Source of the DNA: a bacterium
GTDB lineage: Bacteria; JACRDZ01; JAQUKH01
DNA length: 58,891 bases
Direction: 5' to 3'
Assembly (NCBI GenBank): GCA_028719205.1
Contig: JAQUKH010000012.1
Span: 1-58,891 of the forward strand
Shown here: positions 6,625 through 18,723 of the stretch, in pieces
How the letters are laid out: each line of letters opens with the position of its first letter
Numbering within the stretch: the first letter of the stretch is position 1
Translations under genes and position numbers: made by a program
Notes under the pieces: generated by a model
Told to the model about the DNA's origin: nothing
The model's input: the letters and a program-made list of their open reading frames with translations, nothing else
Databases searched by the model: none

Positions 6625-7314
6625 ATGATAAGAAAAGCAGAAAAAATAAAAAAAGAATCGGCCATTGTTCTTGTGAGCGGCGGGATGGATAGTGCGGTTA
6701 TCGCGGCTATTGCTATAAAAAAATTTACTCCGATATTTCTGCATTTTAACTACGGGCAGAGAACCGTCAAAAAAGAGTTATGGTCCTTCAATAAATTAAA
6801 AGAGTATTATGGTGTTAAACAAAGCAAAACGGTAGATATCCCATATCTAAAAGAAATTGGTGCTTCAAGCCTTTTAGACACTAAAATGGAAATCCCGCTG
6901 GACAGGGCTCATACTTCAAAAATCCCTTCAACATACGTTCCCTTCAGGAATACTCAATTGTTATCCATCGCCGTATCGTGGGCGGAGAGTTTAGGAGTCC
7001 ATCAGGTCTTTTACGGTGCTAATCAGGTTGATTCGTCAGGTTATCCCGATTGCAGGGAAAATTATCTTAAAGCGTTCAATAAATTAATAAAACTCGGCAC
7101 AAAACCGGAAAGCCGTATAAAAATAACCGCCCCTCTGATAAAAATGAACAAAAATGAAATTGTCCGCATGGGAATAAAACTGGGCGTGCCATTCCAGTAT
7201 ACCTGGTCCTGCTACAAAAACACCGATCGAGCCTGCGGCCATTGTGACAGTTGTAAACTAAGATTAAAAGGTTTCAAATCCGCCGGTATTTCAGATCCTA
7301 TCAAATACGAATAA
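6625..7314 (+). CDS. queC: 7-cyano-7-deazaguanine synthase
   Basis: SGGMDS, YGQR, TYVPFRN, GYPDCR, TWSCY, CGHCDSC. Confidence 0.97.
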   Translation: MIRKAEKIKKESAIVLVSGGMDSAVIAAIAIKKFTPIFLHFNYGQRTVKKELWSFNKLKEYYGVKQSKTVDIPYLKEIGASSLLDTKMEIPLDRAHTSKIPSTYVPFRNTQLLSIAVSWAESLGVHQVFYGANQVDSSGYPDCRENYLKAFNKLIKLGTKPESRIKITAPLIKMNKNEIVRMGIKLGVPFQYTWSCYKNTDRACGHCDSCKLRLKGFKSAGISDPIKYE

Positions 7315-7493
7315 AAATAAATGTAATCCACAGCAGCTTTTTGTCCTTGTCAAAAATTGTCTTGAAATGTATAATATGAACCAAAGATTATAAATATTTT
7401 AATCTTTAGGATACATTGTTTCTGCCAATCATTAGGGAATCTCCAAATAGTGTAATTGTGATATAATATCAGCAAGATAGAAAGGAGGTAATT

Positions 7494-7709
7494 ATGATAA
7501 AAACAAATGAACTTATTGAAGAAGCGATTTTATTACCCGTGGAACTTAGAGCCCAAATTATTGATAAACTTCTACAAAGCTTAAATCCATCACAAAAAGA
7601 AATTGATAAATTATGGGCAAAAGAAGCAGAAAAGAGAGTGGAAGAAATACGAAGTGGGAAAGTAAAAACTATTTCAGGAGAAGAAGTATTTAAAAAAATA
7701 TTAAAATAA
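7494..7709 (+). CDS. Addiction-module antitoxin (TIGR02574-like)
   Basis: LPVELRAQIIDKLLQSL...WAKEAEKRVEEIRSGKV pattern; directly upstream of a RelE/ParE toxin. Confidence 0.85.
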   Translation: MIKTNELIEEAILLPVELRAQIIDKLLQSLNPSQKEIDKLWAKEAEKRVEEIRSGKVKTISGEEVFKKILK

Positions 7710-7711
7710 AT

Positions 7712-8011
7712 ATGAATTATTCTTTTCACCCGGAAGCTGAAAAAGAGCTGCTTGAAGCTATTAATTATTATAATGAATGCCAAGATAAACTTGGTATAGA
7801 ATTTGCCAAAGAAACTTATAAATCAATTCAAAATATCCTTTTATTCCCCAAAGCGTGGGCTCCTCTTTCCTCAAATACCAGAAGATATCTTATAAATCGA
7901 TTTCCGTATGGAGTAATATATCAAATAACTGAAAAAGAAATATACATAATTGCAATAATGCAATTAAGCAGAAAACCAAATTATTGGGAAAATAGAGAAA
8001 AATATAAATAA
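7712..8011 (+). CDS. RelE/ParE family toxin
   Basis: FHPEAEKELLEAINYY...RFPYGVIY...IIAIMQLSRKPNYW. Confidence 0.9.
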   Translation: MNYSFHPEAEKELLEAINYYNECQDKLGIEFAKETYKSIQNILLFPKAWAPLSSNTRRYLINRFPYGVIYQITEKEIYIIAIMQLSRKPNYWENREKYK

Positions 8012-8020
8012 AAAGATGTC

Positions 8021-8040
8021 AATCGGGTAACCGGGGGTTT
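8021..8040 (-). other. Possible relic of a group II intron 3' terminus (domain VI)
   Basis: Reverse complement reads CCCCCGGTTACCCGATT, like class C intron 3' ends; only ~20 nt, no domain V or RT. Confidence 0.35.
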
Positions 8041-8229
8041 TACAAAATTATATTAACACTCCTGGAAAAATGCCTGATCGAAAAATTTTAGACGGTATAG
8101 GCGAGCTTCTTGATGCCAAACAAAAAACATGGCAAAGGCAAAACTCTGGACAGAAACTATATTTTTGCTCAAATTAATGCTTAGTAATGAAAAGTAATTA
8201 TCCCATTTAAAAATCCTATATATTTTATT

Positions 8230-8254
8230 GTAGGGGCGATTCGCGAATCGCCCT
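8230..8254 (+). repeat. GTAG-family REP palindrome
   Basis: GTAG then perfect palindrome GGGCGATTCGCGAATCGCCC followed by Ts. Confidence 0.8.
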
Positions 8255-8304
8255 TTTTGTTTGGATTATTTTGTACGGAAAGGTTGGTATATTAAACGGA
8301 AACT

Positions 8305-8384
8305 GGATAAACAAGACTTAAGCGTCCCGATTTATTGGGATGGGTGAAAGCCAGGTTCTTTCCGCTTCTAGTCCTTGTTTATCC
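8305..8384. other. Nested inverted-repeat structure (possible ncRNA or element end)
   Basis: GGATAAACAAGACT pairs with AGTCCTTGTTTATCC; inner AAGCG/CGCTT, TCCCGATTTATTGGGA and GGTGAAAGCC hairpins. Confidence 0.45.
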
Positions 8385-8410
8385 TCGTAGGGGATAACTT
8401 AATGCTAAAA

Positions 8411-8486
8411 GGCTATTCATAACGGGTCATCGGCTAATTTTTCAAATGGAGGAGGTGCAAGCTGCAATTTACCATTTAAATTCCTT
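8411..8486 (-). pseudogene. Internally deleted yoeB relic
   Basis: Three abutting blocks match the yoeB stop region, 19045-19069 and 19177-19206. Confidence 0.7.
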
Positions 8487-8509
8487 TTATTGAAAATATC
8501 ATTATTATG

Positions 8510-8537
8510 TTGCATTTATGTGCAAAATCTGTATAAT
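8510..8537 (+). promoter_or_regulatory. Sigma70-type promoter with overlapping operator-like palindrome for brnTA
   Basis: TTGCAT-16-TATAAT; TTGCA..TGCAA inverted repeat; ATG 8 nt after the -10 box. Confidence 0.6.
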
Positions 8538-8545
8538 ATCAGCAT

Positions 8546-8818
8546 ATGAATTTTGAATGGGATAAGAATAAAAGTGAAATTAACAAAGATAAACATGGCA
8601 TCGCTTTCAAAACTGCAATGGATATTTGGACAGATGAAAACAGTATAGAGATCCATGCTTCACATCCGATAGAGAATAGACGGATCATTATCGGAAAACT
8701 TCAAAATAAATTATGGACCGCAATATATACAATGCGAAACGATATTGTCCGTATAATTTCAGTAAGACGTGCCAGAAATAAGGAGAAGCAATTATATGAT
8801 AAAGAAAAAACTAGCTAA
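8546..8818 (+). CDS. BrnT family ribonuclease toxin
   Basis: MNFEWDKNKSEINKDKHGIAF...RIISVRRA. Confidence 0.92.
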   Translation: MNFEWDKNKSEINKDKHGIAFKTAMDIWTDENSIEIHASHPIENRRIIIGKLQNKLWTAIYTMRNDIVRIISVRRARNKEKQLYDKEKTS

Positions 8819-9056
8819 AAATACTAAAGAATTTGACATCCGATTTGATTCAGGGGAAGATATACATGATCTAATTGATATGTCAAAAGCAAAAGTTATT
8901 CCTCACGGGAAAAAGGTTCGTATTACCCTCGATGTAGCTGAATCACTTGTTAAAGAAATAGATGATATACGCAGAACAATAGGTGTTGACCGCGGTGCGT
9001 TAATAAAAGTTTGGCTTCAAGAAAGAATAAAACAAGAAAAAATTTGTGGAATATAA
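8796..9056 (+). CDS. BrnA/CopG-like (RHH) antitoxin
   Basis: EFDIRFDSGEDI...VRITLDV...GVDRGALIKVWLQERI; overlaps brnT end. Confidence 0.85.
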   Translation: MIKKKLAKNTKEFDIRFDSGEDIHDLIDMSKAKVIPHGKKVRITLDVAESLVKEIDDIRRTIGVDRGALIKVWLQERIKQEKICGI

Positions 9057-9172: not shown

Positions 9173-9264
9173 AAAATAAGCACCCCTCTGATAAAAATGA
9201 ATAAAGATGAGATTAATCCGCCGGTATTTTAGATCCTATCAAATACGAATAAAAATAATCCACA
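9173..9264 (+). pseudogene. Relic copy of queC 3' end with internal deletion
   Basis: 9173-9214 matches ~7120-7161 (KISTPLIKMNKDEI vs KITAPLIKMNKNEI); 9215-9258 matches 7277-7320. Confidence 0.9.
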
Positions 9265-9518: not shown

Positions 9519-9781
9519 ATGAATCCACCAAGAGTATTTATTTCATACTCACATGACTCTGCTGAACATAAAAAATGGGTTTTGGACTTTTCAACCACCT
9601 TAAGGAATCGTGGAGTTGATGCAGTACTGTCATACAATATTCTTCGATGCACCGATTGACATTAGATCGATATATAAAAGATGCAACAAATCAAGGTTTG
9701 TTCAAATGGCTTGGCGCAAATTACTTAAAATTTACAGATAAGGATTTAGATTATTTAGTATCACATAAAATAATTGCATAA
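9519..9781 (+). pseudogene. Internally deleted SEFIR/TIR-domain cassette gene
   Basis: ATG 9519 gives MNPPRVFISYSHDSAEHKKWVLDFSTTLRNRGVDAVL, stop at 9659; an out-of-frame C-terminal remnant ends with TAA inside the attC-like R'' box. Confidence 0.8.
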
Positions 9782-10676: not shown

Positions 10677-12350
10677 ATGAGTCAGGAACCGTCGCGTCAA
10701 GGGAGTAAGCAAGCTAATGATATTCGACCCACGATGGAATTAAGGGATATACAACGTCAGTCACAAGGCCTTGGTGAGATTCCTTTGGATCGGTGGCAAT
10801 GGTTCAATCAAGAACTGTCTGGTACATACCTCGAAACAACTCAAGGGGAACGCTTAACCGATGCTTGCCTGAATGAGTTGTCTGCATTCTATAGTCTACA
10901 TTATGGAATATGGAGTAAAAATACGACAAACCGCCCTTGCGGGAGAGTACACATGAGTCCATCGCTAATAAAGAAGTTTATCAAACAACCTAATGTTCAT
11001 GTTACAAGGGCTCGAATCGGTGAGAAACTTATTGGGTATGCCGTTGCTAACGCAAGCCCCATACCTAGACTTGGGTTGCTTTGTTGGATAACGCAACTTG
11101 TTGTGGACAGCAATCACAGGAACAAATGTGTCGCGAAACGTCTTATTCTTGAGCTGTCAAAACGATATCAATTTTCTTCATGGGGACTTATAACTTCAAA
11201 TCCCTATGCCGTTCGTGCGTTAGAATCTGTGACACAAAGGCGATGCGACTCCACCCATATAAGAAAGTACTCAGAACTGCTAATTGGATTTGGACAAAGT
11301 GCTATCCCACTAATTCAAAATGCATCACTACAAATCGATACTGAATACTGTGTGCTGAACTCAGGATACTGCCTAGATCTATCCGATATACCCTCCATGA
11401 TGAAGAATGCTGAGAGAGATAACGCGCCATGGCCTCTTGGTGTCATTAAAGAAGGGCAAGAATGGTTCGCGTTTACATTTTCAGAGCAACCCTATCAGTC
11501 TATTATAAGCAGCCAGAGCGATCCTGAATGTGATAAAGGAGATTGCATAGCATTTGAGGCGCTTAGCCGCATGCGACTCGACCATCGACATGCATGGCAT
11601 CGGCATACAGCTAAAGAGGTGAACCTCATCCTAGATGCGTTAGGCCTTGCCCCTGGTATGAGTATTCTTGACATTGGTTGCGGGAATGGAAGACATACAC
11701 TCGAGTTGTCAGGTATAGGTTTTGCAGTAGTAGGCATGGATAGGATCTCAGAGTTCATTAGCCACGCACAGTTTTTAGCTGATTGCCGCATGGTTCCCAA
11801 TGCAACATTTCTTGTAAGTGATGCACGATTTTTTAAGTATAAACAAATATTTGATAGCGCGATTTGCCTGTATGACGTGTTATGCACCTTCACTAAAATG
11901 GAAGAAAACGAGAAGATTTTAAAGAGAGTAGTTGACCATCTCAAGCCTGGAGGACGAATACTCTTGTCAGTGATGAATAAGGTGTCCACCGTGGAAAATG
12001 CTCTATATAAAGCTCCCATTGAGCAACATATTAAAATTTGTGATGGTTTCCAAAGGAGTAACACAATGCAAAATACTGGAAATGTATTTCAAAATAAATC
12101 ATATGTAGTGGATCCATCAAACGGAGTTGTCACGAGAAGAGAAGTGTTTGACCTTTACAGCGGAGAAGAATTTGAGATGTATGTTCAAGACCGAAGATAC
12201 TCGCAGAAGGATATTGTTGATATGTGCAAACGCCATGGCATCCATGAGCTGTGGTCCAGGTGTGTTCGAGCAGGGAGGTGGGAGGAGGATCTGCCAGAAG
12301 ATAGCGAACAAGCGAAAGAAGTCCTATTTCTTGGAGAGTATAGAAAGTAG
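10677..12350 (+). CDS. GNAT acetyltransferase - class I SAM methyltransferase fusion
   Basis: ITQLVVDSNHRNKCVAKRL (GNAT motif A); ILDIGCGNGRH and HLKPGGRILL (MTase). Confidence 0.8.
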   Translation: MSQEPSRQGSKQANDIRPTMELRDIQRQSQGLGEIPLDRWQWFNQELSGTYLETTQGERLTDACLNELSAFYSLHYGIWSKNTTNRPCGRVHMSPSLIKKFIKQPNVHVTRARIGEKLIGYAVANASPIPRLGLLCWITQLVVDSNHRNKCVAKRLILELSKRYQFSSWGLITSNPYAVRALESVTQRRCDSTHIRKYSELLIGFGQSAIPLIQNASLQIDTEYCVLNSGYCLDLSDIPSMMKNAERDNAPWPLGVIKEGQEWFAFTFSEQPYQSIISSQSDPECDKGDCIAFEALSRMRLDHRHAWHRHTAKEVNLILDALGLAPGMSILDIGCGNGRHTLELSGIGFAVVGMDRISEFISHAQFLADCRMVPNATFLVSDARFFKYKQIFDSAICLYDVLCTFTKMEENEKILKRVVDHLKPGGRILLSVMNKVSTVENALYKAPIEQHIKICDGFQRSNTMQNTGNVFQNKSYVVDPSNGVVTRREVFDLYSGEEFEMYVQDRRYSQKDIVDMCKRHGIHELWSRCVRAGRWEEDLPEDSEQAKEVLFLGEYRK

Positions 12351-12387
12351 AGAGGTGTATGGGGATCAGGAAAGTGTGCAACATAGC

Positions 12388-12458
12388 ACCCAACATTATT
12401 TTGCGCCTGACTGATGTTCCGCTGCGCTCCACACCAGCAGATGAAAATTGCGTTAGAT
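12388..12458 (+). repeat. attC site
   Basis: ACCCAAC (RYYYAAC) ... CTGATGT..CCGCTGCGCTCC..ACACCAG ... GTTAGAT (GTTRRRY); 71 bp imperfect palindrome after the MTase gene. Confidence 0.75.
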
Positions 12459-12486
12459 TGAATTAAATAAGGGATTATGCTATAAT
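12458..12486 (+). promoter_or_regulatory. Near-consensus sigma70 promoter
   Basis: TTGAAT-17-TATAAT with extended TG. Confidence 0.75.
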
Positions 12487-12492
12487 GTAAAT

Positions 12493-12602
12493 ACATGGCA
12501 AAGAAGAGTTTGGAGCTCTTCTCCCGAAAAGTTGTAAGTCACTCAAAGTTTTGGAGACTAAGAGTGTGCGCTCTTTTGACTTAGTCGGTGCCATGTTTTT
12601 TT
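12493..12602 (+). ncRNA. Candidate structured small RNA
   Basis: Begins ~7 nt after the -10 box; closing stem ACATGGCA/TGCCATGT, two AAGAGT..GCTCTT hairpins, ends in T-tract. Confidence 0.45.
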
Positions 12603-13347
12603 ATTCTTCAATTTCCATTTCTATAAATTCTAAGTATTTCCTTATTTTTTGAATATCTTTTTTACTAATCTTTCCAGGTAGTTTTATTAGGGCCATTCCT
12701 TCGGATAGAGGGAAAGAATGTTGATGTTGGCCCTTTATTATTTCATTTTCTAATTTATCAGTCAATATTTCTTTATTGTCAGTAATTCCAACTAAATTGC
12801 TTTCTTCTGTTTTCTCTAAGCTATTTACTTCTGAATCATCATTTAATGATATTAATATTTTTCCTTCTTCATTAAATGCTTTTGCATAAACACCTGATTC
12901 TTTAAATATTTGAGCAGCTGTTTTAGCGGCGCTCTCTGTTATATTATATTTACGATGCAAAATTGTTTCAATATTTTTTGGAAGAATAGTGCCTTGTTCA
13001 AATTCATTTAATAATTCAAAATAAATATTTGGCCTTTTAAACGCTTCTAGTAATTCAACATTCTTTTCATTATCTGATAAAGGATCTGTTATTTTTAATG
13101 CACTATCTGCTATTGAATAATAATTAACCTTTTTTTTAACTAAGAGTCCAAATTGAATTAGCGCAGAAATTTTTGATAAAAATATTCCACAAATGTCTTT
13201 ATACCCAAGAGCTTTAGCAAATGTCACTTTATCATGTTCCCCTTTTCCAATCGCTTGTTTTATCTTAATAATGCTTTGGATACATTCTTCAAGATTGATT
13301 CTTGGATAAGATCGACTCCGTTCTCTTTTTATTTTTATTTCTTCCAT
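12601..13347 (-). CDS. Hypothetical protein, possible N-terminal winged-helix DNA-binding domain
   Basis: GGAGGT RBS before ATG 13347; SRSYPRINLEECI...AKALGY...KISALIQFGLL pattern; inverted relative to neighbours. Confidence 0.7.
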   Translation of the reverse strand: MEEIKIKRERSRSYPRINLEECIQSIIKIKQAIGKGEHDKVTFAKALGYKDICGIFLSKISALIQFGLLVKKKVNYYSIADSALKITDPLSDNEKNVELLEAFKRPNIYFELLNEFEQGTILPKNIETILHRKYNITESAAKTAAQIFKESGVYAKAFNEEGKILISLNDDSEVNSLEKTEESNLVGITDNKEILTDKLENEIIKGQHQHSFPLSEGMALIKLPGKISKKDIQKIRKYLEFIEMEIEE

Positions 13348-13387
13348 TTTAAATACCTCCATTATTAATTTTGATTATCATGGGGAT

Positions 13388-13416
13388 ATAATATCAGATT
13401 AAAATGGTTATGTCAA
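13388..13416 (-). promoter_or_regulatory. Sigma70 promoter of the inverted gene
   Basis: Minus strand TTGACA-17-TATTAT with extended TG. Confidence 0.7.
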
Positions 13417-13539
13417 GAGATTATTTTATATTTAGCCAAGCTTATTTCTAGGTTAATTATATAGTGGGCTGATTTATGGACTTAAATTCAATAAAAATCC
13501 ATCGACAAACAAAAAGAAAAGATATAAAATAAATTAAGA

Positions 13540-13597
13540 TTTTAACAACAGCACTACAGGCGACGGCTTACAGCCGCGGCTGATTTTATCGTTAGGC
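13540..13597 (+). repeat. attC-like site
   Basis: TTTTAAC ... CGGCT-TAC-AGCCG hairpin ... GTTAGGC; 58 bp; next gene starts 32 nt later. Confidence 0.7.
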
Positions 13598-13628
13598 TTA
13601 ACTAATAAAATTCACATGAAAGGCATTT

Positions 13629-14351
13629 ATGAAAGTGTTAATTCTTGGAGCAAGTGGGGCAACTGGTAAATTAGTTGTATCGCAATTAATAAAGAGAGAA
13701 ATAAATATCAGGATTGTTATCAGGAAGAATGCAATTCTTTCTGATAATATACTTAATAATAAGCTTGTGGAAATTGTTTATGGAAATATTGCCGAACTGA
13801 ATCCAATAGAGAACAAAAACCTTATTGAAGGGTGCGACGCGGTTGTGTGCTGTTTGGGGCATAATATTACTTTTAAAGGCTTATTTGGAAAACCCCGGCT
13901 GCTGGTTTATACGTCTATAAAAAATGTATGTGAAGCAATTATTCATTATTCTCCAAAAAAAATGAAAATTATTCTTATGAATACTGTTGCTGTTGCCAAT
14001 GAAAATAAAGATGTGAATGAAAACAGGTCACTTTCGGAAAAGATTGTCCTTTCAATACTGGGCGTATTATTACCGCCACAGAAGGATAATGTAAGCGCCG
14101 CGAATTATTTACTGAGAGTAATCGGAAAAGATAATGAAAAAATCGGATGGACAGCGGTGCGGCCGGATTCATTAATTGATGATGATGAAGTAAAGCCATA
14201 TGAAGTATTTGAGACAATAAAAAGAAGTCCTCTATTTAACCCCGGAAAAACCAGCCGTATAAATGTCGGCCATTTTATGGCGGAATTAATAACCAATGAC
14301 GAATTGTGGCAAAAGTGGAAGAATAAGATGCCGGTTATATATAATAAATAA
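13629..14351 (+). CDS. NAD(P)H-binding oxidoreductase (atypical SDR / flavin reductase-like)
   Basis: ILGASGATG Rossmann motif, DAVVCCLG, WTAVRP, TSRINVGHFM. Confidence 0.85.
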   Translation: MKVLILGASGATGKLVVSQLIKREINIRIVIRKNAILSDNILNNKLVEIVYGNIAELNPIENKNLIEGCDAVVCCLGHNITFKGLFGKPRLLVYTSIKNVCEAIIHYSPKKMKIILMNTVAVANENKDVNENRSLSEKIVLSILGVLLPPQKDNVSAANYLLRVIGKDNEKIGWTAVRPDSLIDDDEVKPYEVFETIKRSPLFNPGKTSRINVGHFMAELITNDELWQKWKNKMPVIYNK

Positions 14352-14357
14352 AAAATA

Positions 14358-14419
14358 CAGGATTATTCATAATGTGTCCACATGCGGATTATTTTTACTT
14401 TTTTCTTTTCAGGAAGGAC
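14358..14419 (-). pseudogene. Relic copy of yoeB 3' end
   Basis: 62 bp closely matching 18924-18985. Confidence 0.85.
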
Positions 14420-14483
14420 AAACTTAAAACACCTATTTATTATTGAAATTGACTAAAATAAATGTTTATGCTATGTTATACAT

Positions 14484-14675
14484 ATGTCAAATAGTAAAAT
14501 CACCGCAATTTTAAAAAAATATCAAAAAGCTTCCCGCAATAGCAAATCACGCCGGGATTATTTTAGTTTATTTGAGAAAAAGATGTTATATCGTACAACC
14601 AAAACGGAAAATCCGCAAACAACCATGGGTATGGTCAATAAAGTTTTAGATAAATTGTCGACAAAAGCCTTATGA
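14484..14675 (+). CDS. Fic antitoxin (FicA/VbhA-like)
   Basis: Small ORF overlapping fic start; carries inhibitory (S/T)xxxE(G/N) motif TTKTEN. Confidence 0.7.
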   Translation: MSNSKITAILKKYQKASRNSKSRRDYFSLFEKKMLYRTTKTENPQTTMGMVNKVLDKLSTKAL

Positions 14676-15295
14676 AAAAGGAAATAGGCGAAACAAGCTA
14701 TAAGGAAACAGCTTTCGGCATTATTCCACGGTCAAAATTGATTCCTCTGGAAATTGAAGGAACTAAAAGAGCATGGGATTTTGTTATCGATCAATTTAGT
14801 AAAAATAAAATCAATATAACACCCGCCTTTATTCAACAAGTACATAAAATCGGCTTTGATTGGATATTTCCGGCATTGGGTGGCAGGTTTAGAAAAATTG
14901 ATGTTACTGTTTCAAAACATATTCCTCCGAAATTCTATCTTATCCCTCAGTTGATGACTGATTTCACGAAGGACCTTAAAATTAGATTAAAATATTTACC
15001 CAAAATAGATAATCCAAATTTTATTAGTGAACTAACCGCACTTCTAGCATGGACTCATCATAGATTCTTATGGATTCATCCGTTTCAAGATTATAACGGG
15101 CGAATTGGCAGACTATTGAACAACATCGTCCTATTGAACCAAAATCTGCCTCCAATTGAATTAAAAGTAGAAACGCTATCCGGCAGAAAAAAATATGTTG
15201 GAGCTTTACAAAAAGCTGACGGTGGCGATTATGGCAATTTAGAAAAATTAATTCGATCAGCAATTGAAGAATCAATAAAAGAAATTCAAAAGTAA
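14672..15295 (+). CDS. Fic family protein
   Basis: HPFQDYNGRIGR Fic motif. Confidence 0.93.
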   Translation: MKKEIGETSYKETAFGIIPRSKLIPLEIEGTKRAWDFVIDQFSKNKINITPAFIQQVHKIGFDWIFPALGGRFRKIDVTVSKHIPPKFYLIPQLMTDFTKDLKIRLKYLPKIDNPNFISELTALLAWTHHRFLWIHPFQDYNGRIGRLLNNIVLLNQNLPPIELKVETLSGRKKYVGALQKADGGDYGNLEKLIRSAIEESIKEIQK

Positions 15296-15303
15296 TTAGA
15301 AAC

Positions 15304-15362
15304 TGTCAACAATTCAATGCACTGGACGGGCAGTAGCCCGCCTCTGATTTCTGGTGTTAGGC
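15304..15362 (+). repeat. attC-like site
   Basis: TGTCAAC ... CGGGC-AGTA-GCCCG hairpin ... GTTAGGC; 59 bp, 8 nt after the fic stop. Confidence 0.7.
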
Positions 15363-16329: not shown

Positions 16330-16531
16330 ATAATATTTAGGAGATATTATGTTATACGTTATTTATGAAGAAAAAAATGAAAGTGTTCCACTACATCCGG
16401 ATTTATTTTTATTGGTGGATTTTTAAAGATCTGGAATGATGCTGTTTCTTTAACACACAAAGTGAATGTTCCTGAACAAATTTTAGGAATAAAGAATGAT
16501 TTAAAAGAAAACTCAATTGATTTGTATGGAT

Positions 16532-18016
16532 ATGAATAAATTAATAAAATATTTTGAAAGCATTCCAGCATGTTTAAAACATGAAGAAAAATATCCTGTT
16601 AAAGATCTTTTAATATGGATGTTTAAAAATGGAGAAATAAAAAAACGGCTATTAATAACATTTGGAATTCTGGTTGTTTCATGGATATTATCTTCTATCC
16701 CTTTACCCGGCATTGATTTAGTAGTTTTCCAAAGTTTTTATAAAGGAACAATAAATGGTAATTCAATAATTGCAATGTTTATGGGAACTTATAGAAGAAT
16801 GTCAATCTGTTCGGTGGGTTTAATGCCACTTATTAATTCGTGCCTGATAATACAAATATTATCATCTGTAATACCACCGCTAAGAAAATTATCTTTTGGG
16901 GGAGAAACAGGCAGAGAACGCATCTCCAAATATACATATATTTTAACCATAATACTTACTGTTATCCAAACATATTACATTACTTTATGGCTTGAGTCAT
17001 TAAAATCATCAGCTGGGAATATAGTCCAAAATCCGGGTTTGGGGTTTAAAATAGTTTGTATTATTACTGTGTTAGCTTCAGTAATGTTTATGCTTTTCAC
17101 CGCAAATCTTATTAATCAATTTGGGATTGGAAACGGTTTTGTGCTTATACTTCTTTTCCCTTTAATTATTGAGAATGTTTCACATGGTTTATTATGGCCC
17201 TTAAAAAAAACAAATTATACTGATAATATAACAATGTTAAGAATAATATTTTTCATTGCTTCTATTATAATAACTTATGGAATGTTTTATTTTACAAGAA
17301 TGGCAAAAAGCATAAAGATCAAAAGAGAAAACTTTGCTGCCATTTCGATCCTGTTCCGGCCTACCTTTATAGGAGGGATGCCTGTATTATTAGCTTCAAC
17401 TATTCTTACCAGATCTGATATGTTAACATCTTTTTTAAAAAATAACCCTATACAGATAGAATATAATTCAATTAGTTGGATTATATTCAAGTGTATTTTG
17501 GTTTTTGTTTTAACATATGTATATATTCTGGTTGTTTTTAGCAGCGATAGTTTACAAAAACAAATGGGAAAATATGGATATGATCTTGTTGACAATGAAA
17601 ATAAACCAGCAGATGATTATTTTCTGGAAATTCTTTCAAAAGTTATGTTTGCAACAGCAATGTTTCTTATCATATTAAATTTAATTCCCGATATATCCAG
17701 AAAAATATTTACGCAATTCTATTTAGGGATATCAGTATTTTCGATATTTGTCATTATTTTTTCAGATACTCTGGACCAACTTATATTTTATAAGGATAAA
17801 GAAAATTCCGGGACAAAAGATTGGAGTATTTGTTATACCGCTTTTGATGAAATAGACGCGGAAATAAAAAAGGGATATTTAAGGGATAAGGGTTTTCCTG
17901 CGCTTGTTAAGCCATACCGTTATTCCTGGGGTATGCCGATAAGGACTATTATTGATCAGTATCAGATATATGTCCCCTCTGAAATGAAAGATAATGCGAG
18001 AAATTTAATAATATGA
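16532..18016 (+). CDS. Divergent SecY-like membrane protein with C-terminal DUF2007-like domain
   Basis: KRLLITFGIL..IPLPGID, SICSVGLMPLINSCLIIQIL, GGETGRERI, GIGNG, GGMPVLLAS (SecY TM pattern); C-terminal DEIDAEIKKGYLRDKGF...IYVP...ARNLI; start uncertain. Confidence 0.75.
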   Translation: MNKLIKYFESIPACLKHEEKYPVKDLLIWMFKNGEIKKRLLITFGILVVSWILSSIPLPGIDLVVFQSFYKGTINGNSIIAMFMGTYRRMSICSVGLMPLINSCLIIQILSSVIPPLRKLSFGGETGRERISKYTYILTIILTVIQTYYITLWLESLKSSAGNIVQNPGLGFKIVCIITVLASVMFMLFTANLINQFGIGNGFVLILLFPLIIENVSHGLLWPLKKTNYTDNITMLRIIFFIASIIITYGMFYFTRMAKSIKIKRENFAAISILFRPTFIGGMPVLLASTILTRSDMLTSFLKNNPIQIEYNSISWIIFKCILVFVLTYVYILVVFSSDSLQKQMGKYGYDLVDNENKPADDYFLEILSKVMFATAMFLIILNLIPDISRKIFTQFYLGISVFSIFVIIFSDTLDQLIFYKDKENSGTKDWSICYTAFDEIDAEIKKGYLRDKGFPALVKPYRYSWGMPIRTIIDQYQIYVPSEMKDNARNLII

Positions 18017-18723
18017 AAAACAAAATTATTTTAATATATCTTTTGCCGATACTTTTCCTGGGCTGCTCTTCTGATTCAGTCGTTTCTCGCAAACGACAAT
18101 ATAATGAAGAACCCTTGTTCGGTAATATCGAAAAAACTGATTATCAAAAACAAGCCGATACTCGATTTATTCAAGAAGTTATAACGGAATCCGGCAATAA
18201 AGAAGCTGCTACCGGCAATACACTGAAAAGTGCCTGGAATTATTACTATAAAGGTGACTACTCATTGGCTATGAAAAGGTTTAACCAAGCTTGGCTGCTC
18301 GATAATAATAATGCTGAGGTTTTCTGGGGTTTTGGTTTAATAATGGGGATAAGGGCATGGAGTGAAAACCCGGGAAAAAACTTAAGTGAATCCATAAAGT
18401 TTTTAGAAAAGGCAAATGAGTTGTTTAAAGATAATCCTAATCTGCTGATAGATCTCGCTCATTCCGAAATAATGCTGGGGAATTTTTTAAAAGATAATAA
18501 GAGGGAAGAATTCCAAAACCATTTTGATAAAGCGAGAAGTTTATTCCAAAAATCGGAAGGATTAAATAAAAATATCCCTTTACTTTATTTAAATTGGTCA
18601 CTTTTGGAATTCTTTGAAAAAAAATATGCAGAGGCTAAAGTTAAATTAGATATTGCAAAGAAAATGGGATTTAAACCGGATCTTAACTATGAAAAAGATC
18701 TGGAAAAACATTTAAAAAAATAG
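18013..18723 (+). CDS. TPR-repeat lipoprotein
   Basis: Lipobox FLGC; AMKRFNQAWLLD.NNAEVFWGFG TPR motif; ATG overlaps the secY-like stop. Confidence 0.8.
   Translation: MKNKIILIYLLPILFLGCSSDSVVSRKRQYNEEPLFGNIEKTDYQKQADTRFIQEVITESGNKEAATGNTLKSAWNYYYKGDYSLAMKRFNQAWLLDNNNAEVFWGFGLIMGIRAWSENPGKNLSESIKFLEKANELFKDNPNLLIDLAHSEIMLGNFLKDNKREEFQNHFDKARSLFQKSEGLNKNIPLLYLNWSLLEFFEKKYAEAKVKLDIAKKMGFKPDLNYEKDLEKHLKK

Follow-up and report, generated by a model that had tools for sequence, protein, structure and literature searches.

An integron-type cassette in which an inverted winged-helix gene converges on a small candidate transcript

When a small candidate RNA and a protein gene are the only two units of one mobile cassette and face each other tail to tail, do they work as a pair, or does the small unit act on the end of the gene that it meets? 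This question is raised by an integron-type cassette of 1.14 kb (positions 12459-13594) that lies in an attC array without an integrase, on contig JAQUKH010000012.1 of assembly GCA_028719205.1, from a bacterium of the GTDB lineage Bacteria; JACRDZ01; JAQUKH01. The window, that is, the whole stretch of DNA analysed here, comprises 58,891 nucleotides (nt) of this contig. A preliminary description of the locus had read it as a self-expressing pair of an RNA and a winged helix-turn-helix-like protein, bounded by two attC-like sites and representing perhaps an undescribed addiction, defence or regulatory system. The features that it described were confirmed in the sequence, and its interpretation was partly supported. 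Our preferred reading, which we hold tentatively, is that the small unit, lying tail to tail with the winged-helix gene, serves it in cis as an antisense partner and terminator. On present evidence, the cassette is a lead rather than a finding. The features needed to follow the argument are listed below.

12376-12458, plus strand: left attC-like site (attC1), with R'' GTGCAAC at 12376-12382 and R' GTTAGAT at 12452-12458
12458-12486, plus strand: promoter-like site of the small transcript, TTGAAT (12458-12463), 17 nt, TG-n-TATAAT (12481-12486), 10/12 matches
12493-12602, plus strand: candidate small transcript of about 108-110 nt, predicted from the promoter, the stem and a run of seven U (U7)
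12495-12584, plus strand: frame of 29 codons, an alternative reading of the small unit; net charge of the product +6, no hydrophobic segment
12601-13347, minus strand: tandem winged-helix gene encoding a protein of 248 amino acids (aa; P0001), with stop codon TAA at 12601-12603 and GGAGG 8 nt before the ATG at 13347
13388-13416, minus strand: promoter-like site of the winged-helix gene, TTGACA (13416-13411), 17 nt, TATTAT (13393-13388), with TG, 11/12 matches
13501-13597, plus strand: right attC site (attC2), with R'' TTTTAAC at 13540-13546 and R' GTTAGGC at 13591-13597

Between the two sites, the only open reading frame (ORF) of at least 40 aa that is not antisense inside another one is 12601-13362 on the minus strand, inverted relative to the array. 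Its second ATG (13347) was taken as the real start, and the protein database holds the corresponding 248-aa form. As the preliminary description had it, this gene is preceded by its own TTGACA-17-TATTAT promoter-like site (11/12 matches, with TG), and its stop codon touches the T-tract of the small unit; in fact, the TAA overlaps T7 by two bases.

The small unit occupies the opposite end of the cassette. Its -35 hexamer overlaps the last base of the R' core of attC1, and its promoter-like site shares 76% identity over 37 nt with that of a 63-aa ORF at 14484 (D2). Two arms, CATGGCA (12494-12500) at the 5' end and TGCCATG (12589-12595) at the 3' end, enclose an internal hairpin (12502-12522) and a long imperfect hairpin, and U7 (12596-12602) follows the second arm directly. 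The 5' arm begins 7-8 bases past the -10 box, and the 7-bp stem formed by the two arms closes about 100 nt; among 200,000 shuffles, 0.07% had such a stem linking the predicted start with the base that precedes the T-tract. The plus-strand fold has an energy of -35.0 kcal/mol (z -3.3) and beats 200/200 shuffles. The unit is also a local peak of GC content, with 42% as compared to 21-33% in the gene. When compared to Rfam, the whole window gave 0 matches at the gathering threshold, and the best sub-threshold matches in 12350-13650 (E 1.8-9.3) were to unrelated eukaryotic families. No tandem repeat family was found in 12458-12602.

Taken together, these signals suggest how the cassette may work. 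Two convergent, self-promoted units would abut tail to tail within one cassette. The small transcript would start at the first bases of the cassette, and these would pair with its last bases, just before the U7 terminator. A simple scan found no minus-strand terminator-like site between the stop codon of the gene and attC1. For this reason, the mRNA of the gene is expected to run into the small unit, and therefore the two RNAs would be complementary over up to ~105 nt. The small unit may then act in cis on the 3' end of the gene, either by duplex formation or by transcriptional collision, and its U7 terminator may also halt transcripts that enter from the upstream cassettes and would, if unchecked, run antisense to the inverted gene. 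We infer from the arrangement of these signals that the promoters fire, where the transcripts end, that they overlap and that the overlap has a regulatory effect.

Several observations weigh against this reading. The minus strand folds as well or better (-32.6 kcal/mol, z -4.6, beating 200/200 shuffles), and the structure might have its role in the minus-strand mRNA or in the DNA itself; it is hence not specific to one strand. The minimum free energy structure represents only 2% of the ensemble, so that the details of the internal fold are poorly defined. In this AT-rich region, promoter-like sites show no enrichment (9 as compared to 7.0 ± 2.6 in shuffles), and another site with 11/12 matches lies inside the gene. 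An ATG at the predicted start, followed by an open frame of 29 codons, fits a leaderless mini-gene. The left attC is weak (fold z 0.30). Finally, the small unit is a singleton, for which no homologue was found anywhere searched; since it has no homologue, it offers no test of covariation or conservation.

The cassette had been described as attC-bounded on both sides. The right boundary stood up well, whereas the left one is plausible only. Both boundaries show an R' core of the form GTTRRRY and an inverse R'' ending in AAC. A G|TT crossover at attC1 would put the first base of the cassette at 12454 or 12455. The bottom-strand fold of this site consists of a 10-bp stem with one bulge and is no better than shuffles, and attC1 is therefore to be taken, on its core motifs, as a plausible attC. 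On the other side, attC2 contains a block made of AAGATTTTAACAA (13536-13548), a bulged central stem and CTGATTT (13580-13586), followed by R'. A motif search of the genome retrieved two near-copies of attC2 (C30a and C30b) on another contig, C30, and the 35 nt ahead of the block (13501-13535) are common to one of the C30 sites. In the three sites the ends AAGATTTTAACAA and CTGATTT are invariant and the central stem sequences differ. A single bulged base is identical in every bottom-strand fold of this family, and between attC2 and C30b one stem pair is compensatory (C-G to T-A). attC2 has therefore what is expected of an imperfect attC hairpin, namely an extrahelical base, a conserved structure and a variable stem sequence, and its assignment as an attC site is well supported by these comparisons.

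The sites of the array are co-oriented (plus strand), separate ORFs and end at 12458, 13597, 15362 and ~16326; attC2, attC3 and attC4 align with a shared CTKATTT-n-GTTA. Contig C30 (locus L035 about 7000-9000, minus strand) carries a second, ordinary co-oriented array, with a BrnT/BrnA pair and attC sites of the attC2 family; it also has a canonical GCCTAAC...GTTAGAA site with a fold z of -4.9. When the whole genome was scanned with the integron-integrase model, no match was found on the contig of the window. The array is therefore called integrase-less, and the integron integrase of the genome lies on another contig, C35 (TIGR02249, 419 bits vs. a cut-off of 265, G000:C35:7256-8215).

The stretch is present in three public DNA runs of one study labelled as landfill metagenome. 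In one of them (X2), one contig tracks the window to 13594, which is inside the GTTAGGC core, and then differs, and another contig keeps the junction of the window. This is the pattern that a cassette exchange would leave, as seen in single low-depth contigs from one study. Read joints 13532>15324 and 13541>15307, whose sides measure only 20-30 nt, were left out; their probable origin is in other arrays that have attC sites of a related kind. Custom attC finders were uninformative (0 matches with strict rules, 185 scattered matches with loose ones), and MAFFT followed by RNAalifold on five attC sites of unequal length returned a meaningless consensus of four pairs.

What does the inverted gene encode? 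P0001 gave no Pfam, NCBIfam or PADLOC match, and PHROGs gave matches only at E 0.04-0.085. A word-index search found one relative only. Exhaustive phmmer comparison retrieved 1722 cluster representatives at E<=1e-3, of which 450 reach E<=1e-10 and 13 reach E<=1e-30; this protein family of 1722 clusters has no Pfam model of its own. When 50 aligned members were analysed, 8/50 matched HVO_A0261_N (PF25213, winged-helix; best E 5e-8), 3/50 matched CARF-assoc_HTH and 0/50 matched DUF5343 (PF17278) at E<=0.01. P0001 itself matched neither DUF5343 nor HVO_A0261_N. The nearest named clusters of the ESM Atlas carry DUF5343 (score 0.87-0.89), which we regard as a lead only. No open-access literature on HVO_A0261 was found.

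The AlphaFold2 (AF2) model of P0001 (predicted local distance difference test score, pLDDT, 88) shows a winged helix at residues ~15-90, a second helical domain at 92-155, a disordered linker at 175-202 and a beta-hairpin followed by a long helix at 207-247. Foldseek against the PDB gave nothing at E<=0.001, and a profile search of the PDB gave nothing below E 0.28. In a wide structural search, the best matches spanned both N-terminal domains (residues ~8-177, 142-167 of them aligned). They included the recognition domain of FokI (Z 9.4, 165 residues), N.BspD6I (Z 8.9), the uncharacterised structure 3bhw (Z 8.6), BrxA (7zge; Z 8.3, 151 residues) and SspB (Z 7.2, 167 residues). Chains of the MarR family matched residues 18-90 only (Z 6-7.5, root-mean-square deviation 2.2-3.0), and no Pfam match points to this family by sequence, so that the likeness is one of fold only. 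Since Z values of 8-9 are near the level that the tool calls common, we claim a fold and not a family membership: in the model, P0001 is a tandem winged-helix protein of DNA-binding type, with a C-terminal beta-hairpin-helix tail. The winged-helix character anticipated for it is thereby supported, both in the model and in the structural matches. Most likely, P0001 is an oligomeric DNA-binding protein. A candidate shared protein-binding motif, AGTTTKGGAG, was dropped, since 7 matches were counted as compared to 9.05 expected.

Relatives of P0001 are of two kinds. The family profile matched 10/401 diverse genomes at E<=1e-5, the genome of the window included, and 6/79 genomes of the phylum of genome G340 at E<=1e-15; a full-length homologue was found in 0/401 genomes of the phylum of genome G312 at E<=1e-25. 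Outside the genome of the window, full-length homologues are present in G340 (two tandem copies), G462 and G451, and more divergent ones, which keep the C-terminal motif, in G164 and G317. The remote full-length homologues match the family profile with E values from 1e-59 to 1e-67 and belong to GC-rich genomes. In G340, G462 and G451 the genes are chromosomal, with either a MutL-family (PF13941) gene nearby or housekeeping genes around them. None of these three loci showed attC sites, and each gene lies behind its own TTGACAAAGCG...TATATT site. The family occurs as a stand-alone gene or as a tandem pair. A co-oriented, very basic ORF of 42 aa is conserved directly after the homologue in G462 (L027:2265-2480) and G451 (L028 about 1180-1420). 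It is enclosed by a GC-rich inverted repeat of 14-15 bp, followed by a U-run in G462, and shows no Pfam match and no evident likeness to the 29-codon frame of the window.

Partial relatives match the family profile over the two N-terminal domains only, with E values from 1e-9 to 3e-22. Of the nine scanned, two (L022 and L030) match PADLOC PDC-S35 and contain a TIR domain of the CAP12/Pycsar type (Pfam E 7e-19 and 2e-15, respectively). Another four of the nine (L019, L020, L029 and L031) match the PADLOC TIR-effector model PDLC00733, and 3/4 of these also match Nuc_deoxyrib_tr, below the cut-off. Six remote relatives hence carry TIR-type effectors in place of the tail of P0001, and therefore the tandem winged-helix module appears to be used as the front end of defence-type effectors. 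These fusions suggest a sensing or DNA-binding role for the module at the front of single-protein defence candidates, PDC-S35 among them. P0001 itself has no TIR or related effector domain, as judged by Pfam and PADLOC.

If the RNA and the protein formed one system, the RNA would be expected to accompany the homologues of the protein. A covariance model built from the small unit (R1) matched nothing but that unit, both in 22 sources (171,731 bases), among them the 19 homologue loci that were retrieved, and across the 2.59-Mb genome. A DNA search of 61 genomes returned, besides the unit itself, only fragments no longer than 52 nt (E>=0.0066). Reading of the G340, G462 and G451 loci revealed no convergent unit of this kind; G164 and G317 were checked by R1 only. 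The comparison covered remote homologues and left out the closest ones, which are 48-57% identical. Searches of genomes, metagenomes and viral contigs gave no match for contigs of these close homologues, and tblastn against plasmids and phages gave nothing. Since the homologues that were compared are remote and GC-rich, this result is weak evidence against a coupling of RNA and protein, and it refutes their co-occurrence weakly. Action of the RNA in trans on the 5' end of its partner mRNA was rejected as a candidate, the duplex energy being -23.7 kcal/mol as compared to a shuffle mean of -23.6. The proposal that RNA and protein are one functional system was therefore not supported, the RNA being a singleton with no trans complementarity beyond chance. 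As to the idea of a self-expressing pair, each unit does have its own promoter-like site, but nothing supports a joint function.

How do other explanations of the small unit fare? It may be that no separate small transcript exists and that the dyad-rich 100 bp are the 3' end or terminator of the gene and a stop to read-through, the plus-strand promoter being a product of chance in AT-rich DNA. We consider this rather unlikely. A multi-branched insert of 100 nt in the stem of a terminator would be unusual, the minus-strand stem is followed only by UAUUUAC and not by a U-run, and the extended -10 promoter puts the start exactly at the first base of the stem, as happens in 0.07% of shuffles. This explanation has in its favour that the minus-strand fold is no less significant than the plus-strand one (z -4.6 vs. 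-3.3), that promoter-like sites are as frequent as in shuffles, with one 11/12 site inside the gene, and that an A7/T7 pair flanks the stem, as in bidirectional terminators; moreover, a passage of PMC5737381 states that structured motifs near attC are easily mistaken for RNAs. A different possibility, which we doubt without finding it far-fetched, is that the small unit is a leaderless mRNA (or one with a 2-nt leader) for a basic peptide of 29 aa. The 3' end of this mRNA would cover its start codon by base-pairing, in the manner of small-toxin mRNAs that are inhibited by fold-back, and the convergent winged-helix mRNA would be its antisense. The ATG at 12495 sits 8 nt past the -10 box, and the same geometry, with no Shine-Dalgarno sequence, is found at the BrnT gene of the window at 8546 (Pfam E 7.8e-23); two more cassette genes, the 63-aa ORF at 14484 and the C30 BrnT, begin 6 nt past theirs. 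The frame of the small unit runs through 29 codons without a stop and closes 4 nt short of the 3' arm. By base composition a well-placed ATG is expected in ~5% of cases (an estimate), and an open frame of at least 29 codons arises by chance in 15% of shuffles; the frequency of such frames by itself counts against a gene, but the two together are an unlikely pair for a purely non-coding RNA. However, the peptide has no Pfam match and no hydrophobic segment (best 15-residue Kyte-Doolittle mean 0.58), and its helical hydrophobic moment, which 26% of shuffles equal or exceed, is unexceptional, so that there is no amphipathic or transmembrane signal. A leader of 2 nt is also poorer for leaderless initiation, which counts against this explanation. 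In any case, the mini-gene would be compatible with an antisense role, and the two can coexist. Spacings of 6-8 nt from the -10 box to the start, with no Shine-Dalgarno sequence, were seen at 8532-8548, 14472-14486, 12481-12497 and, on the minus strand, at L035 about 8135-8110; leaderless starts seem usual in these cassettes, and the small unit seems to fit the pattern.

Less probable still is that the RNA and the winged-helix protein are one system for addiction, defence or regulation, for instance with the RNA binding or antagonising the protein. They are the sole two units of one mobile cassette, each with its own promoter-like site, and proteins with defence-type effectors have an N-terminal part homologous to the N-terminal module of this one. 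Passages of the literature add that inverted self-promoted cassettes are typically toxin-antitoxin modules (PMC13108822) and that cassettes can encode phage defence (10.1101/2024.07.02.601719). Nevertheless, neither the R1 model nor reading by eye found the RNA at the fetched homologues, the family is stand-alone or tandem, and in the protein neither an effector or toxin domain nor a PADLOC match was found; in addition, the two units converge instead of forming an operon, and they show no complementarity in trans. At the speculative end, and with slim chances in our view, the cassette could be a self-contained mobile two-part conflict module of a new type, in which an effector-less member of a tandem winged-helix sensor family with TIR-effector relatives is combined, tail to tail, with a small toxic or regulatory transcript (acting as RNA or through the 29-aa peptide), the 3' untranslated region of the protein gene serving as antisense, to make an addiction or anti-phage cassette. 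Against these alternatives, the tail-to-tail cis-antisense and terminator unit remains our preferred, still tentative, reading.

The source genome measures 2.59 Mb in 68 contigs, is 92.7% complete and contains the window as contig C12. Its lineage is thinly sampled: only 5/400 comparison relatives belong to the same phylum, and 2 of those to the same genus. The cassette lies in a 9-kb variable island between queC (6625-7314) and a SecY-family gene (16517-18016). The island also holds toxin-antitoxin genes (an Unstab_antitox + ParE pair and BrnT), an NAD(P)-binding gene, the 63-aa ORF followed by a Fic gene, a PEMT-like gene and, before the cassette, the following gene.

10677-12350: fusion of GNAT and methyltransferase

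A perfect 21-bp direct repeat of the queC 3' end (7300-7320 and 9238-9258) flanks a 1.9-kb insert, which contains Unstab_antitox + ParE (7494-8011) and BrnT (8546-8818) with a downstream partner. This insert resembles an element integrated in the end of queC and is distinct from the attC array. A short frame at 9520-9640, which begins with MNPPRVFISYSHDS, resembles, by eye, the start of a TIR-type domain and may be one that is cut after ~45 residues. On the other side of the cassette, the attC-bounded unit 13598-15362 contains the NAD(P)-binding gene (13629-14351) and then the self-promoted 63-aa ORF with Fic (14484-15295); no attC was seen between these two parts, and the unit may be a fused cassette. 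Right after the array, 16517-18723 holds the 499-aa SecY-family gene (Pfam E 1.6e-35, weak for a housekeeping SecY) and then a TPR protein; this SecY-family gene may be an accessory SecY. The idea that the small RNA is an RNA anti-CRISPR or a solitary repeat was dropped, as the assembled genome contains no CRISPR array. A tandem repeat of ~90 nt at G000:C2 about 166100-166364, which reaches the end of its contig, is not a CRISPR.

Most integron cassettes have no known function, and the self-promoted ones are typically modules of toxin-antitoxin or defence type with a stabilising effect on arrays. If the tail-to-tail control proves true, this cassette would be a compact example of how an inverted cassette can be insulated and regulated within an array; should toxicity or protection be shown for the pair, the cassette would count as a new, small module for addiction or defence. 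The locus further brings into view a family of 1722 clusters that shares its N-terminal module with TIR-effector proteins. A limited search of the open-access literature found no description of this layout or of the protein family. Relative to the literature found, the layout, with an inverted DNA-binding gene facing a small, closed, self-promoted transcript, is new.

With regard to known systems, P0001 shares the tandem winged-helix arrangement of BrxA, FokI, N.BspD6I, SspB and 3bhw (Z 7.2-9.4), but differs from them in that the identity is 7-12%, no PADLOC or Pfam match links it to them and its tail falls outside their aligned parts. Membership in the BrxA/DUF1819 family was rejected for lack of a PADLOC or Pfam match, a BREX neighbourhood in the window not having been looked for. 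Another likeness is to the PDC-S35 and CAP12/Pycsar TIR candidates, whose N-terminal halves (L022 and L030) match the family profile over the two winged-helix domains. Unlike these, P0001 has no effector, and in L022 and L030 the PADLOC models align to the C-terminal half alone.

A type III toxin-antitoxin system of the ToxIN kind, in which short tandem RNA repeats precede an endoribonuclease gene on the same strand, was rejected, given that no tandem repeats were found in the small unit, the units converge and the protein has a winged-helix fold. In type I toxin-antitoxin loci, tail-to-tail arrangements are known from Fst/RNAII of par, TxpA/RatA and BsrG/SR4, and hok mRNA folds back from its 5' to its 3' end. 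The cassette would resemble these in its predicted convergent promoters, overlapping 3' ends, shared terminator and 5' end that contains a start codon and pairs with the 3' end; its geometry, with convergent promoter-like sites and a stop codon inside the T-tract, would permit such an overlap. It was not assigned to type I because the small frame encodes no hydrophobic toxin. A further difference is that the partner of the small unit is the mRNA of a 248-aa protein of DNA-binding type and not a dedicated antitoxin RNA.

Finally, the review PMC8876359 puts on record cassette-borne promoters, promoter-bearing cassettes without ORFs and a cassette small RNA, sRNA-Xcc1 of Xanthomonas campestris (see also PMC6557892), and toxin-antitoxin cassettes with their own promoters are described in PMC13108822. 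As in the promoter-bearing cassettes and sRNA-Xcc1, the locus described here is a unit bounded by attC-type sites, with sigma-70-like promoter sites that would act independently of Pc and a predicted small transcript with no ORF or a mini-ORF. Unlike in those cassettes, the small unit here shares its cassette with an inverted protein gene, and the two converge tail to tail.

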